Translations under genes and position numbers: made by a program
IMG/VR virus record: IMGVR_UViG_2671180349_000006
DNA: 29,349 bases
Direction: 5' to 3' (one strand)
From: a virus
Lineage: Duplodnaviria > Heunggongvirae > Uroviricota > Caudoviricetes
Notes under the pieces: model-generated
What the model was told of the DNA's origin: nothing
The model's input: the letters and a program-made list of their open reading frames with translations, nothing else
The model's database searches: none
Part shown: positions 21,409 through 28,800 of the stretch, in pieces
Numbering within the stretch: position 1 is the first letter of the stretch
Layout: the number at the start of each line of letters is the position of its first letter

Positions 21409-21702
21409 ATGAAAAAAATGTTGTTTTCTGCCGCTCTGGCAATGCTTATTACAGGATGTGCTCAACAGACGTTTACTGTTGGAAACAAACCGACAGCAGT
21501 AACACCAAAGGAAACCATCACCCATCATTTCTTCGTTTCGGGAATTGGACAGGAGAAAACTGTTGATGCAGCCAAAATTTGTGGCGGCGCAGAAAATGTT
21601 GTTAAAACAGAAACCCAGCAAACATTCGTAAATGGATTTCTCGGTTTTATTACTTTAGGCATTTATACTCCACTGGAAGCGCGTGTGTATTGCTCACAAT
21701 AA
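21409..21702 (+). CDS. bor: Bor lipoprotein (serum-resistance moron)
   Basis: MKKMLFSAALAMLITGCAQQTFTV... lipobox LITGC; AGGA Shine-Dalgarno; convergent with Rz as in lambda. Start placed at the ATG for MKKM rather than the ORF-track TTG. Confidence 0.9.
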   Translation: MKKMLFSAALAMLITGCAQQTFTVGNKPTAVTPKETITHHFFVSGIGQEKTVDAAKICGGAENVVKTETQQTFVNGFLGFITLGIYTPLEARVYCSQ

Positions 21703-23143: not shown

Positions 23144-23359
23144 TTACTCTCCCCGTGCAGCCTTACGACGGTCCTCTCTGATTTTGAAATACAGGTTAGT
23201 CAGATATGTCAGCAGCCCAAACAGCAGACTCCCCAGCACGCCTATTGCCGCCCACTGAGACGGGGAAACCCTGTCCAGCAACTGCAGGAACCAGTAGCCC
23301 GTTCCCACCGCTGACGTGGTGTATGACACACCTGTTGTGATTTTTTCCATCTGGTCCAT
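23144..23359 (-). CDS. S: Pinholin (phage 21 S-like) with dual-start motif
   Basis: [71 protein letters not shown]; two transmembrane segments; Met1 and Met4 form a dual start. The ORF-track start at 23464 is an upstream GTG. Confidence 0.85.
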
Positions 23360-23666
23360 ACCCCGTCTCCCGTTATCCGGAAGCTGACAACAATAAAAAA
23401 GCCACCAGTTAACTACTGATGGCTCTGATAACTCATGCAAGCGTCTCAGACGACCCACTGACACTACCGGTGAGTTTAACGATACCTTCCATTTGACTGG
23501 CTCACTTTTTATGATGATGCCGGTGCATTTATCTCCAGCACCAGACTTTCTATCTCAACGCCATACGTTGCATTTTTGGTAATATCCGTCAGCGTCAGTG
23601 CATTTAGTCCCACTGCCAGACTGTCTTTTATGGCCTGGAATGCCGGGCCAGTACGATGACGTAGTA

Positions 23667-23870
23667 TCACTCCGGCTCAGTTGCACCACTGACCACCACA
23701 TCACCTTCTGCTGCAATCGCCTGCATCAGGGTATAAGGGGTTATGGCCACCGGACTACCAAACGGCTGCCAGCCCTCTTTCAGTTTATGTGTCAGCTTTT
23801 CCGCAAGATCTGACGGCGGCGCCGCCCTGACAACATCATAGTATTTAAATGCCATGGTTCTTTCCACCAT
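23667..23870 (-). CDS. DUF1737-like small protein, probably the N-terminal fragment of a truncated gene
   Basis: 62-67 aa (MAFKYYDVVRAAPPSDLAEKLTHKLKEGWQPFGSPVAITPY...); a 56-codon open frame with no start codon follows in another frame (23509-23676). Confidence 0.5.
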   Translation of the reverse strand: MVERTMAFKYYDVVRAAPPSDLAEKLTHKLKEGWQPFGSPVAITPYTLMQAIAAEGDVVVSGATEPE

Positions 23871-24114
23871 CTGAAAAATAATTCTTTAAAATACCTGACA
23901 TGTAATACAGAAAAAACACAAAACCATACCTTAAATAAAAACCTGATTATCAAGCAGATATGCATGGATAAACTACAAGACGAGATATAAACCACCCTGT
24001 ATTTAAATAAACAATAAACAACATCAGAAAAATAATTCTGCTCTATGGTTTAATTCAAAAATATCATTTATACTTTTCAGAACATCACCAGCAAGGCATA
24101 AACAAGGAAAGTAA

Positions 24115-24450
24115 ATGAAGTGGATTGTGATTGATACAGTTATCCAGCCATCATGCGGAATATCTTTTTCAGTCATATGGAGTAAAATAAAATTAATAAT
24201 CTGGTATCAATCGGATGCTTTCTTACCTCCTGAAAGTATATTTACACTGACTCACACAGGCATCATGCTCAATAACAAAGTGCTACCTGTAACCATTTAC
24301 AACGTAGTACCATTCAATAAAACATTCTGGAATTTAATCAAAAACAACCAGGAATGCCCTACAAATACAGATAACGTAATGAATGAATGCTTTAATAACC
24401 GTTGCACTCTGCAAATATGTCCTTATGGACTAAAACAACAAAGTCCATAA
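24115..24450 (+). CDS. Hypothetical protein (111 aa) in the AT-rich cargo island, opposite to late transcription
   Basis: ATG 24115 with AAGGAAAG Shine-Dalgarno; very AT-rich upstream region; Cys-rich C-terminus; stop codon lies inside a 10-bp perfect inverted repeat (24421-30 / 24443-52). Confidence 0.5.
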
Positions 24451-24484
24451 GGAGTTTACTCACATCTGACAAAATCAATATAAA

Positions 24485-24506
24485 CAGCCCCTCCGGAGAG
24501 GGGCTG
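24485..24506 (-). terminator. Hairpin with T-rich tail on the minus strand, inside the cargo island
   Basis: Stem CAGCCCCTC/GAGGGGCTG (9 bp), loop CGGA; the minus-strand downstream sequence is TTTATATTGATTTT. Confidence 0.4.
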
Positions 24507-24897
24507 GAGAGTGGCGCTATGTGCCATTGCATGGTGCCGGGTGCCTCCCGGTGAATTCAGTACCAGCACCTGAATCCGCGATTATCCCATATACCTACTC
24601 GCTGATTGCCCCTCCGCACAGGGGGATTCACCATGCCAGTTTCTTTTAACAAACTCCCCGCAAACCAGACAACAGTCAACCGCCTGAATTGTGAAGTATT
24701 TAAAAATTTCTCCCGCTAACTGATACCCGGCTAACAGTCTGGCGTTTTCTTTTTCAGCAACGGGAAAGCAACAACCACCACACCCGCCACCAGCACACCG
24801 TCAGCCAGCACTGACATTATCCGGCTGCTGCAATGCCACTCACAAAAACAGTAAGCAATCACTTTTTACCGTAACAAGTGATAATCCAGATATGTAT

Positions 24898-25224
24898 CTA
24901 CCCCAGATGAGTAATCCGAAGTTCATCCATACCACAGGTACTGGCTATTCTGTTGTACTCCTGAACAAGAGCAAATAATTCTGAATTAGCAACCATGAAC
25001 TCATCGCAAACCCTCTGTATAGCATCACTATTCAGAATAATAACGTCTCTTCCCGAAAGACGATCAGGAGTACAGAACAAAACTGTCAAACGGCTGAAGG
25101 CCTTTGCTCGTCCTGCATTGACTATATCAATACGCTGCCTAAGGATGAAACACCCCGACGCCTCATCAATATTCACTCTACCCACACCATATGAATGATA
25201 AATATTTAATGCTGAAAAAACCAT
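24898..25224 (-). CDS. Hypothetical protein (~108 aa) in the cargo island
   Basis: The ORF-track start is a TTG at 25251; the first ATG is at 25224 without a clear Shine-Dalgarno; no recognisable family. Confidence 0.35.
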   Translation of the reverse strand: MVFSALNIYHSYGVGRVNIDEASGCFILRQRIDIVNAGRAKAFSRLTVLFCTPDRLSGRDVIILNSDAIQRVCDEFMVANSELFALVQEYNRIASTCGMDELRITHLG

Positions 25225-25364
25225 TAGACCGTATAACAAACACTCAATCAATACTTAACAGAACTTTTATTTTTGACAAACATAAAATATTTTCAACAAT
25301 ATCCTGAGCCAGGTATATTTCAGTATAAGGCTCTGCCGGAAGGAATCTGGAAGAATGAATATAG

Positions 25365-25438
25365 CGCGCTGTACTGGATTCGAACCAGTGACCGATTGCT
25401 TAGAAGGCAATTGCTCTGTCCGGCTGAGCTAACAACGC
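25365..25438 (-). tRNA. tRNA-Arg (anticodon UCU), no encoded CCA
   Basis: Minus-strand cloverleaf: acceptor GCGTTGT/ACAGCGC, D-arm GCTC-AGCCGGACA-GAGC, anticodon stem ATTGC/GCAAT with loop CTTCTAA, T-arm ACTGG-TTCGAAT-CCAGT, discriminator G; the 3' trailer is CTA, not CCA. Confidence 0.8.
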
Positions 25439-25538
25439 TGAATACCGATAATGGACCGCCATCGGGGACCCGCCCCCGCACCAACAACCCTGTTATCGTG
25501 TCGTCTGCTCTTCCTGATAAGCTAATGGCGGTTTGTGA

Positions 25539-25614
25539 TGGTGGCCCTTGCTGGATTTGAACCAGCGACCTGGCGATTATGAGTCGCTCGCTCTCACCAC
25601 TGAGCTAAAGGGCC
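25539..25614 (-). tRNA. tRNA with CAU anticodon, ileX/ileZ-like (tRNA-Ile2, lysidine-modified) rather than Met
   Basis: GGCCCTTTAGCTCAGTGGTGAGAGCGAGCGACTCATAATCGCCAGGTCGCTGGTTCAAATCCAGCAAGGGCCACCA; encoded CCA; closely resembles E. coli ileX as remembered. Confidence 0.85.
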
Positions 25615-25651
25615 GGGAGCAGAATAATAACGGTCCGTAATTAATTCCGCA

Positions 25652-25678
25652 ATAAAAAACCCGCTCGGCGGCGGGTTG
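25652..25678 (-). terminator. Intrinsic terminator tR' downstream of the late promoter
   Basis: Minus-strand stem ACCCGC/GCGGGT (25659-25664 / 25671-25676), 6-nt loop, followed by TTTTTT ATT; about 40-60 nt downstream of the predicted pR' start. Confidence 0.6.
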
Positions 25679-25724
25679 TAGAAACTCTTCTAACGTCAGG
25701 CATAAAAAGCCCATTATTATGACG

Positions 25725-25757: not shown

Positions 25758-26579
25758 TTACCTAGTTACCTTTTTTAACTGCCGCTCAGCCCATGCTTCT
25801 TCAATATCAAACCGGGTCACCAGCGCATCATAGAATTTCTTAACTGTTTTTTCCCATGACGCGCGTGTTATCTGGTTTGTCACCTCGCATATAGCATTAA
25901 ATGCCTCCGTTGATGGTAGTCTTTCATAGCCACGACCACCACAACGCTGGCAGTCTCTGATAACAGGCATACCACGTTTTACCGACTCTTCACGATGAAT
26001 GGCGACACCACGCCCACGGCAATCCTTACAGGCAGTGGAAACCTCACCCTTTCCGCCACACTCCGGACAGGCAACTTTTACCACCTCCCTGACTTTTTTC
26101 CATTCTTCCCAGTAAGACGAATACACACCTTTCGTACACTTTGCCCATACCGGCGGCTTACCATCCGGATACTGGACCTTGTTTGTAAAAACTACGCTTT
26201 CAATAAATTTTTCCCCATAGCAACAAGGGCACTGCTTTTTACTCGCTGCGCTACGGGCATAATCCTCAAAAGCGTACGAAGCCATAATGCGCATCACTAC
26301 CGGTTTTATTTCTGCCGGAAGTTTTCTCAACGCCGCCACACGATCGCACCGACTGAGTGCATAATCTGCCAGTAATTCTGTTGCCCGCGCCCTGTCATTC
26401 ATACTGATGCCCATTTTCCCCAGGAACGCAGAAAAACCCATCTCAGCCCGATTCTGTGTCATGCCCTGCGCGGCCATCACATCAGTGATACTCAGCGCAT
26501 CTTTTGACGTTGAGGCCGATGCATCGGTCAGGCCAGGGGATTTTGGGGAGTAGTATTTCGGTAAATCTTCCAGTTTCAT
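25758..26579 (-). CDS. Q: Late-gene antitermination protein Q
   Basis: 273 aa with CxxC...CxxC zinc-binding motifs (CPCC, CPEC, CKDC, CQRC); position immediately upstream of pR'-tR' and downstream of rusA. Confidence 0.8.
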   Translation of the reverse strand: MKLEDLPKYYSPKSPGLTDASASTSKDALSITDVMAAQGMTQNRAEMGFSAFLGKMGISMNDRARATELLADYALSRCDRVAALRKLPAEIKPVVMRIMASYAFEDYARSAASKKQCPCCYGEKFIESVVFTNKVQYPDGKPPVWAKCTKGVYSSYWEEWKKVREVVKVACPECGGKGEVSTACKDCRGRGVAIHREESVKRGMPVIRDCQRCGGRGYERLPSTEAFNAICEVTNQITRASWEKTVKKFYDALVTRFDIEEAWAERQLKKVTR

Positions 26580-28456: not shown

Positions 28457-28612
28457 TTACTCCTCAGGTTCGTAAGCTGTGAAGACAGCGACCTCCGTCT
28501 GGCCGGTTCGGATTCGTACCTCGCAGAGGTCTTTCCTCGTTACCAGTGCCGTCACTATGACGGTTAAACAGATGACGATCAGGGCGATTAACATCGCCTT
28601 TTGCTGCTTCAT
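28457..28612 (-). CDS. hok: Hok-family type I toxin (51 aa)
   Basis: Translates to MKQQKAMLIALIVICLTVIVTALVTRKDLCEVRIRTGQTEVAVFTAYEPEE, a canonical Hok/Gef sequence; below the ORF-track size cutoff. Confidence 0.9.
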   Translation of the reverse strand: MKQQKAMLIALIVICLTVIVTALVTRKDLCEVRIRTGQTEVAVFTAYEPEE

Positions 28613-28800
28613 AGCCTGCTTCTCCTTGACCTTTCGGTCCGTAAGAGGCTAATCTCTATGTGTCGCATAGATATGGCCTCAGATTAATGTTAAGCGTCTT
28701 GCAGGACGCGTAATGTTAACTGGGGCTTTTCTCTATCTGCCTTTTGGTGTTCATGCCTGAGACAGATAGCCTCAAGCACCCGCAGTCATTCTACTTAACT
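28613..28800. promoter_or_regulatory. hok leader region expected to carry the mok overlap and antisense sok RNA
   Basis: A short upstream frame (MRHIEISLLRTERSRRSRL) ends by overlapping the hok ATG; inverted repeats at 28731-28769; placement by analogy to hok/sok loci. Confidence 0.35.

Follow-up and report, generated by a model that had tools for sequence, protein, structure and literature searches.

An AT-rich cargo island in the late region of an Escherichia coli lambdoid prophage: a very probable mosaic of four small modules that includes the RssB anti-adaptor gene iraL

Which genes occupy the AT-rich island between the tRNA genes and the lysis cassette of the Caudoviricetes sequence IMGVR_UViG_2671180349_000006, and do they amount to an accessory function? 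The question was raised by an earlier note, made from the letters of this DNA alone, which placed the island at the position equivalent to that of stx in Stx phages and regarded it as the likely site of an undescribed accessory function in virulence, superinfection exclusion or anti-phage defence. In the following, the window is the whole stretch of 29,349 nt that was analysed, the island comprises its positions 23871-25364, and the late strand of the phage is the minus strand. The latter follows from the open reading frame (ORF) listing, a tRNA search and the annotation of an E. coli EC32 record (NZ_CP085619), which is 100% identical and was the source of the PGAP annotation used for comparison. 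On the late strand, the gene order is Q, tR', the tRNA genes, ORF92, a DUF3927 gene, the small RNA (sRNA) gene STnc100, iraL in inverted orientation, a deleted nanS-p esterase gene and the holin gene. Very probably, four small cargo modules in a lambdoid late region make up a mosaic island, iraL being its functionally understood part. The expectation of cargo that includes an accessory gene expressed in the lysogen was right in kind; however, the function is not an undescribed one, as IraL has been published and STnc100 is listed in Rfam.

The 111-aa ORF at 24115-24450 lies on the plus strand, i.e., against the late operon, and is by its sequence iraL, which encodes an RssB anti-adaptor of the IraM family. 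The predicted protein is identical to IraL of E. coli CFT073 in 109/111 amino acids, the only substitutions being S78N and L89M, and the coding regions share 334/336 nt (99.4%). Hryckowian et al. (mBio 2014, PMC4045071) defined iraL operationally by a nucleotide identity to the CFT073 gene of at least 95% along its entire coding region, a definition under which this gene falls. The NCBIfam model NF007393 matched residues 1-110 with 162.3 bits, compared to a cutoff of 121 (E 3.7e-48, model positions 1-113/114), crystallised IraM (PDB 8TWD) was matched with an E-value of 1.4e-31, and PGAP names the ORF 'anti-adapter protein IraM'. The earlier note had described the ORF itself correctly, including its Shine-Dalgarno sequence (AAGGAA, located 7 nt ahead of the ATG) and the AT-rich region upstream of it, where the GC content is 27.9%. 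Its statement that the protein resembles no family known to its author, in contrast, cannot be upheld in view of the NF007393 match and the 98% identity to the characterised CFT073 protein.

In CFT073, iraL (c1429) was found on the potB prophage island, and its product acts as an RssB anti-adaptor that stabilises RpoS in the logarithmic growth phase (Hryckowian et al., PMC4045071). The same study showed that CFT073 IraL raises the level of the sigma factor sigma-S (RpoS), whose half-life in log phase is about 5 min but drops to about 2.5 min once iraL is deleted, and that IraL is common in uropathogenic E. coli (UPEC) and Shigella. According to later papers, the iraL (c1429) mRNA level is increased by 1.6 log2 at 37 °C and the IraL level is elevated in a fur mutant. 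By analogy with the 98% identical CFT073 protein, IraL of the window would be expected to bind RssB and to stabilise sigma-S. The IraM protein of K-12 (YcgW) belongs to the same family and shares 61% identity with IraL; however, it is a separate paralogue, its gene is situated immediately beyond the annotated limits of prophage e14, and no STnc100 gene was found beside it. The two proteins have also been distinguished by their activity, since IraM acts upon Mg2+ starvation and is bound by both RssB domains, whereas IraL acts in log phase and interacted with the N-terminal one alone in two-hybrid assays (PMC4045071).

The residues that contact RssB, which form clusters I to III as defined in the IraM-RssB structure 8TWD, are largely conserved between IraM and IraL. 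All five residues of cluster I are identical (I4, I6, W22, K26, I42), as are three of the four in cluster II (C14, F18, W30; the fourth is T13S) and two of the four in cluster III (I61, Y62), the remaining ones being H63N and I64V. IraL contains five cysteines, four of which are located within the last 31 residues. IraM, the two IraL copies compared and a variant of the family from the Stx2c phage 2851, which is described below, all share these four cysteines (C81, C92, C97 and C102; residues 81-102, encoded at 24355-24420) and the motifs QECP and ICPYG without change. The C-terminal cysteine tail was absent from the crystallised construct, and the IraM structure paper calls it less conserved and predicted to be flexible.

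What lies directly downstream of iraL? The earlier note recorded here a GC-rich structured segment with a hairpin of 9 bp in the stem (24485-24506). The segment and the hairpin are both present; however, instead of being part of an undescribed island, the segment is, as judged by covariance, the gene of the curated Rfam sRNA STnc100 (24476-24665, minus strand), and the hairpin is its terminator. Using cmscan, the model RF02076 was matched over its full length (1-206/206) with 132.4 bits, the gathering score being 47 (E 6.5e-30), and the predicted fold has a minimum free energy of -74.6 kcal/mol (z -2.26). The hairpin consists of nine pairs, seven of them G-C, with a loop of 4 nt and a T-run on the minus strand, and corresponds to the 3' stem of the Rfam consensus; together with TTTATATT it forms an intrinsic terminator at the 3' end of STnc100 (minus strand, 24506-24476). 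On the other strand, it begins 35 nt beyond the stop codon of iraL, for which it could be at best a weak terminator because the plus strand lacks a T-run. PGAP annotates a pseudogene ('hypothetical protein, missing C-terminus') antisense within STnc100 (24521-24646, plus strand), and phage vB_EcoS-640R1 has a coding sequence (CDS) of 70 aa at the same place; the pseudogene is probably a spurious ORF call inside a G+C-rich sRNA gene.

In the literature, STnc100 is treated as a prophage sRNA, for which a distance of 75 nt from the upstream stx2 operon is reported in Stx2 phages. It is also reported to be a relative of the PasD sRNAs (PasD family: Zhu, Shabalina & Storz, bioRxiv 2026), which Hfq RIL-seq had revealed in enteropathogenic E. 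coli. The copy in the window shares with this family the full-length covariance match, the terminator stem and the position in a lambdoid late region between the post-Q cargo and the esterase and holin genes. In Stx phages such as Shigella phage 75/02 and phage 2851, STnc100 adjoins stxB on its downstream side, whereas it is preceded by the DUF3927 gene here. Two copies are present in vB_EcoS-640R1. The late region of a prophage of the bovine E. coli strain OkiPb01698 contains five copies (2667-2879 and 4639-5618; 119-172 bits each), four of them in tandem, and this array is located immediately downstream of an ORF92 homologue.

To what extent does the island correspond to the place of stx? 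Compared with the Stx2c phage 2851 (NC_049943), the tRNA genes align at 84%, and positions 23698-24694 of the window, which contain STnc100, the gene of the iraL family together with its promoter and the 5' end of nanS-p, are collinear at 70% identity over about 1 kb. In phage 2851, the tRNA genes are followed by stx2A, stx2cB (5621-5890, minus strand), STnc100 (5335-5546, minus strand), an IraM-family ORF of 107 aa on the opposite strand (5001-5324, plus strand) and nanS-p. Both loci therefore share the succession of Q, tRNAs, cargo, STnc100, inverted IraM-family gene, nanS-p and holin, but the tRNAs and STnc100 enclose stx2cAB as cargo in the phage and ORF92 together with the DUF3927 gene here. 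Because of this collinearity, the segment equivalent to stx2AB can be narrowed down to about 24695-25348. The position proposed by the earlier note is thus correct for this segment and not for iraL and STnc100, which are found downstream of stx in phage 2851 as well. The iraL gene sits one slot downstream of the stx-equivalent segment, and an IraM-family gene coexists with stx in Stx2c phages. The absence of a recognisable toxin was confirmed, as tblastn searches with Stx1A and Stx1B against 23300-25700 gave best E-values of only 2.8 and 6.3.

The IraM-family protein of phage 2851 is a third variant, which shows 74% identity to IraL and is unannotated. A tblastn search with IraL matched 46 phage records, 41 of which fall into the band of 60-80% identity. 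The 107-aa ORF is located after stx2c and STnc100 in Stx2c phages and occurs in some Stx2a phages too; it is unannotated in almost all of them and named 'iraM' in one. On sequence grounds, it resembles a further paralogue, the third after IraM and IraL, and the literature searches retrieved no relevant paper on an IraM-family gene in Stx phages.

A close counterpart of the island is found in CFT073, whose potB prophage is 97.9% identical to positions 23501-25656 of the window. Both iraL loci have the same neighbours in the same orientation (the tRNAs, the DUF3927 gene, the STnc100 region, a DUF1737 remnant and the holin gene), and they share the -10 hexamer and the start of the 5' untranslated region. 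They differ in the middle tRNA-Arg gene, which is intact in CFT073 and decayed here, and in the prophages themselves, since that of CFT073 has other structural genes and is located at potB, whereas the end of the EC32 prophage adjoins a truncated ydfJ. Among 5426 complete E. coli genomes, 863 contain at least 80% of the island and 1446 contain iraL. In genomes of sequence type 131 (ST131), the match to the island is 99.9%, and the majority of the ones among the matches listed have it at two places. The comparison with related phages, which the earlier note had suggested as a check for a variable cassette, revealed a modular structure: mEp460_ev081 shares 24528-25700 at 99%, comprising ORF92, the DUF3927 gene and STnc100, and is devoid of iraL, while vB_EcoS-640R1 shares 23300-24694 at 97.6%, comprising iraL and STnc100, and is devoid of ORF92. 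The modules of the island recombine independently, as these sequence comparisons indicate.

After the assignment of IraL and STnc100, ORF92 is the only one of the two larger island proteins that is without a function. The late-strand ORF at 24898-25224 (minus strand) encodes 108 aa if translated from the ATG at 25224, as stated in the earlier note, and contains a conserved core of 92 aa (24898-25176), which starts with a GTG at 25176. The claim of the earlier note, which likewise knew no family resembling this protein, holds with respect to function: in Pfam and NCBIfam there was no match above the cutoff, none was obtained in PADLOC, and Foldseek searches were uninformative. It does not hold with respect to family, as residues 1-108 match positions 1-108/108 of phrog_2873, a family without an assigned function, with an E-value of 4.9e-70; the divergent homologue P0016 matches the same family with 5.1e-47. 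Homologues in two other prophages (loci L005, i.e., OkiPb01698, and L006) share 60-64% of their amino acids with ORF92, have the same length of 92 codons from the GTG and the same stop, and contain no insertions or deletions. The ratio of nonsynonymous to synonymous substitution rates (dN/dS) between ORF92 and these homologues is 0.24-0.28 at a dS of about 1, and differences at third codon positions dominate. This pattern of substitutions marks ORF92 as a genuine gene on which purifying selection acts. No function emerged from the profile and structure checks proposed for it.

Of 5426 complete E. coli genomes, 1313 contain ORF92. The gene is restricted to prophages of enterobacteria, in which all homologues are located downstream of Q in late orientation. 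PGAP lacks the gene in both EC32 and CFT073, and one homologue is annotated (WP_001017777.1). An exhaustive HMMER search with the family profile identified 20 clusters in 1.84 billion representative proteins, all of them short, of the same kind and free of fused domains, and tblastn against 50,697 phage records gave a single match in mEp460_ev081, where the ORF is unannotated. The AlphaFold2 (AF2) model of ORF92 is a two-helix hairpin with a pLDDT of 84.5 and a conserved (T/P)PD(R/K) turn. Foldseek comparison of this model with the PDB and BFVD retrieved only generic helical hairpins such as EmrA, prefoldin and designed helical bundles, all with E > 0.3. Two further candidates were set aside: the Pfam family RHIM, which covered 12 residues below the cutoff (E 0.075), and GapR/UPF0335, the top match of a profile search against PDB sequences, which extended over 47 residues and was not significant (E 0.05). 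A gene for a 241-aa regulator with an AraC-type helix-turn-helix is located directly upstream of divergent ORF92 homologues in the post-Q region (L009, 3969-4694; L005, 3256-3981).

The fourth module is a small hydrophobic protein of 43 aa (24731-24862, minus strand), a short variant of the DUF3927/TciB-like proteins. It matches DUF3927 (PF13064) with 95.6 bits, the gathering score being 25 (E 1.7e-27), and phrog_1470 ('TciB-like') with an E-value of 7.8e-13. Its C-terminal 28 residues (12-39) are identical to those of TciB of phage JLK-2012, and it shares with TciA/TciB of this phage the position upstream of STnc100; the DNA homology ends at 24830. TciB of JLK-2012 has 54 aa, and its N-terminal hydrophobic segment is replaced by 11 unrelated residues in the protein studied here. 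In addition, ORF92 takes the place of tciA, of which no homologue was found in this region of the window, and the complete TciB architecture, in which the 54-aa form includes the hydrophobic N-terminal segment and is accompanied by TciA, is absent. A search of the literature for DUF3927 yielded nothing relevant. The idea that ORF92 and the DUF3927 protein form an obligate pair was rejected; there is no conserved two-gene system, because divergent ORF92 homologues occur at loci without DUF3927.

The composition and the surroundings of the island agree with most of what the earlier note had described. The island has a GC content of 39.1%, compared to a mean of 51.9% (standard deviation 4.2) for segments of 1494 bp, and these approximately 1.5 kb are indeed unusually AT-rich, forming the lowest-GC stretch of the window. 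Its content goes beyond chance, as indicated by the family matches of the two larger ORFs and of the structured segment (E = 3.7e-48, 4.9e-70 and 6.5e-30). This does not apply to the 'two 28-codon ORFs', only one of which is listed (24892-24978, plus strand); with about 20 ORFs in the range of 25-50 aa overlapping the island, ORFs of this size are at chance level.

The position between the phage tRNAs and the lysis cassette was confirmed by ARAGORN, PGAP and the ORF listing. The late strand is set by the gene of a Q-type antitermination protein (25758-26579, minus strand), an ORF of 273 aa that is annotated as 'antitermination protein' in the EC32 record. Downstream of it, a tR'-like intrinsic terminator is found at 25658-25677 (minus strand), with a 7-bp stem containing five G-C pairs that is followed by TTTTATTG. 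The tRNA gene at 25539-25614 (minus strand) has a CAT anticodon and corresponds to an ileZ-type tRNA-Ile2; it was identified by ARAGORN, by Rfam (72.5 bits) and by PGAP, which lists it as tRNA-Ile. The gene of a tRNA-Arg(TCT) is located at 25364-25438 on the same strand (ARAGORN; Rfam, 68 bits). Between them, at approximately 25451-25531 (minus strand), lies a decayed tRNA-Arg(TCG), the middle member of the ileZ-argN-argO trio, which was recognised by alignment to the tRNA-Arg(TCG) of CFT073 (12388-12464 of the CFT073 locus). It was called neither by ARAGORN nor by Rfam; its flanks align to CFT073, and its central part has diverged.

On the other side, the island is directly adjoined by an internally deleted nanS-p/YjhS-type esterase gene (23512-23855, minus strand), which retains the DUF1737 N-terminal part (23855-23634) and the C-terminal 46 codons (23649-23512). 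In tblastn searches, YjhS of JLK-2012 matched this remnant with its residues 1-74 and 572-617, each at 89%, PF08410 was found with an E-value of 2.5e-16, and PGAP annotates two pseudogenes there. The deletion amounts to about 1.5 kb, has its junction near 23636-23651, and leaves a 67-aa DUF1737 ORF and the C-terminal fragment; in phage 2851, the esterase is annotated as two separate CDSs and lacks such an internal deletion. The lysis cassette starts with the gene of a class II holin (23144-23359, minus strand; PGAP, 5274-5489 in the EC32 record), and past it, the late strand carries a YdfR-family gene, a lysozyme gene and Rz/Rz1. Two further morons are found in the same prophage, the gene of the iss/bor serum-survival lipoprotein, which runs counter to the lysis genes (21409-21702, plus strand), and sok, an antitoxin RNA recognised by Rfam (106.7 bits), together with hokD (28610-28781, minus strand).

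How might the modules act in the lysogen? In the proposed mechanism, iraL would be transcribed from its own sigma-70 promoter in the direction opposite to the late operon, a direction that is known from 5' RACE in CFT073 and that we infer for the window. IraL is predicted to be a small beta-barrel with an IraM/PmrD-like fold, as suggested by 8TWD. Based on the activity of the 98% identical CFT073 protein, it would bind RssB, so that sigma-S is not handed over to ClpXP and is thereby stabilised during exponential growth. Since IraL stabilises RpoS, the island would represent a lysogenic-conversion module that raises the general stress response of the host. The prophage sRNA STnc100, which ends in the 9-bp hairpin, converges on iraL, and ORF92 and the DUF3927 gene, both in late orientation, would be transcribed mainly once Q antiterminates at tR'.

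Is the iraL copy of the window expressed at all? The start of the CFT073 iraL mRNA was determined by 5' RACE (ACATCACCAGCAAGG... / ACATCACCAGC...; PMC4045071) and maps to position 24082 of the window, resulting in a leader of 33 nt. The promoter region (24049-24082, plus strand) comprises a -35-like hexamer TTTAAT (24049-24054), the -10 hexamer TATACT (24069-24074) and the transcription start site at 24082, from which a putative transcription of this allele against the late operon can be postulated by analogy. Alignment with CFT073 revealed four differences in the promoter and leader (24049-24114), and these weigh against a role of this copy: a deletion of 1 nt turns the only good -35-like hexamer, TTTACA in CFT073, into TTTAAT, the base at -1 is changed from G to A, and CC is replaced by GT between the Shine-Dalgarno sequence and the ATG of iraL. 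The same direction is indicated by the frequency of the allele, whose class of 411 nt (at least 99% identity) is found in 171 of the 1446 iraL-positive complete genomes, the majority allele being the CFT073-like one of 412 nt, and by the local decay, i.e., the lost argN tRNA and the deleted esterase. Moreover, a second copy with a mutated -35 region, iraL2 of the ST131 strain JJ1886, has been reported, and its expression was left open (PMC4045071). The allele of the window may be iraL2 of JJ1886. Because of the -35 deletion, the minority status of the allele and the published doubt on iraL2, the expression of the window's iraL copy is not established. Taken to its conclusion, this evidence would mean that the -35 deletion abolishes the promoter, that iraL is a silent or decaying duplicate and that the island is a relic without present function in a degenerating prophage. 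We consider this unlikely, yet it deserves to be taken seriously. The ORF is intact and contains only two substitutions, both of them conservative; the -10 hexamer, the position of the start site, the Shine-Dalgarno sequence and the leader are unchanged apart from the replacements mentioned above, of which only that at -1 directly precedes the start site; the allele persists in 171 complete genomes; and intact lysis, terminase and structural genes are annotated for the prophage. The activity of this promoter allele is uncertain and constitutes the main uncertainty of the analysis.

Two other explanations concern the remaining content of the island. The accessory system that the earlier note had in mind, be it for virulence, superinfection exclusion or anti-phage defence, would now have to reside in ORF92 alone, with or without the DUF3927 protein. 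In favour of this, ORF92 is a genuine gene subject to purifying selection; wherever it occurs, it belongs to the cargo behind Q and is oriented like the late genes. Its place is precisely that of stx2AB in phage 2851, no family of known function includes it, and a promoter-like site (TTGAAA-16-AAAAAT, 25296-25269) is located upstream of it. However, six such sites were found in the region where 4.9 are expected, which is at chance level, the fold is a generic two-helix hairpin with no informative structural neighbour, the family is tiny, and its divergent members lack DUF3927. As regards anti-phage defence, a search of PADLOC-DB 2.0 with ORF92, its homologue P0016, the DUF3927 protein and IraL yielded zero families at E <= 0.1, and we regard an undescribed accessory system as quite improbable. 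That the island is what is left of decayed stx or nanS-p genes, a finding that the earlier note had named as speaking against its proposal, is hardly conceivable. The deleted esterase with its PGAP pseudogenes directly adjoins the island, but it lies outside 23871-25364; an stx origin is refuted at the sensitivity of tblastn (E > 2 for both Stx1A and Stx1B), and the island genes are intact members of other families.

Two further readings go beyond the preferred one and, taken jointly, have a low probability. ORF92 could be an accessory protein with an undescribed activity that is either controlled by Q or expressed as a moron, e.g., modulating lysis, a host factor or competing phages. Likewise, STnc100 and the IraM-family gene, a convergent pair that is 70% conserved between this prophage and the Stx2c phages, could act as one regulatory unit. 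If this is true, the stabilisation of RpoS would be tied to the lysogenic state, because Q-driven transcription through STnc100 would collide with iraL and shut it off.

With regard to the mosaic of four cargo modules, most of the content of the island is already known and only ORF92 is open; the main content holds no new biology, since IraL was published in 2014 and STnc100 is a curated Rfam family. What is added is an exact mapping of the island, module by module, with the stx-equivalent segment at about 24695-25348, a minority iraL promoter allele of uncertain activity, the small, conserved and uncharacterised ORF92 in the stx slot, and an apparently unannotated third variant of the IraM family right after stx2c in Stx2c phages. 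For E. coli of the UPEC/ST131 type, the mosaic reading, which we hold to be very probable, means that a lambdoid prophage carries, as the cargo of its late operon, not a toxin but a regulator of host physiology, IraL, which raises RpoS in growing cells.

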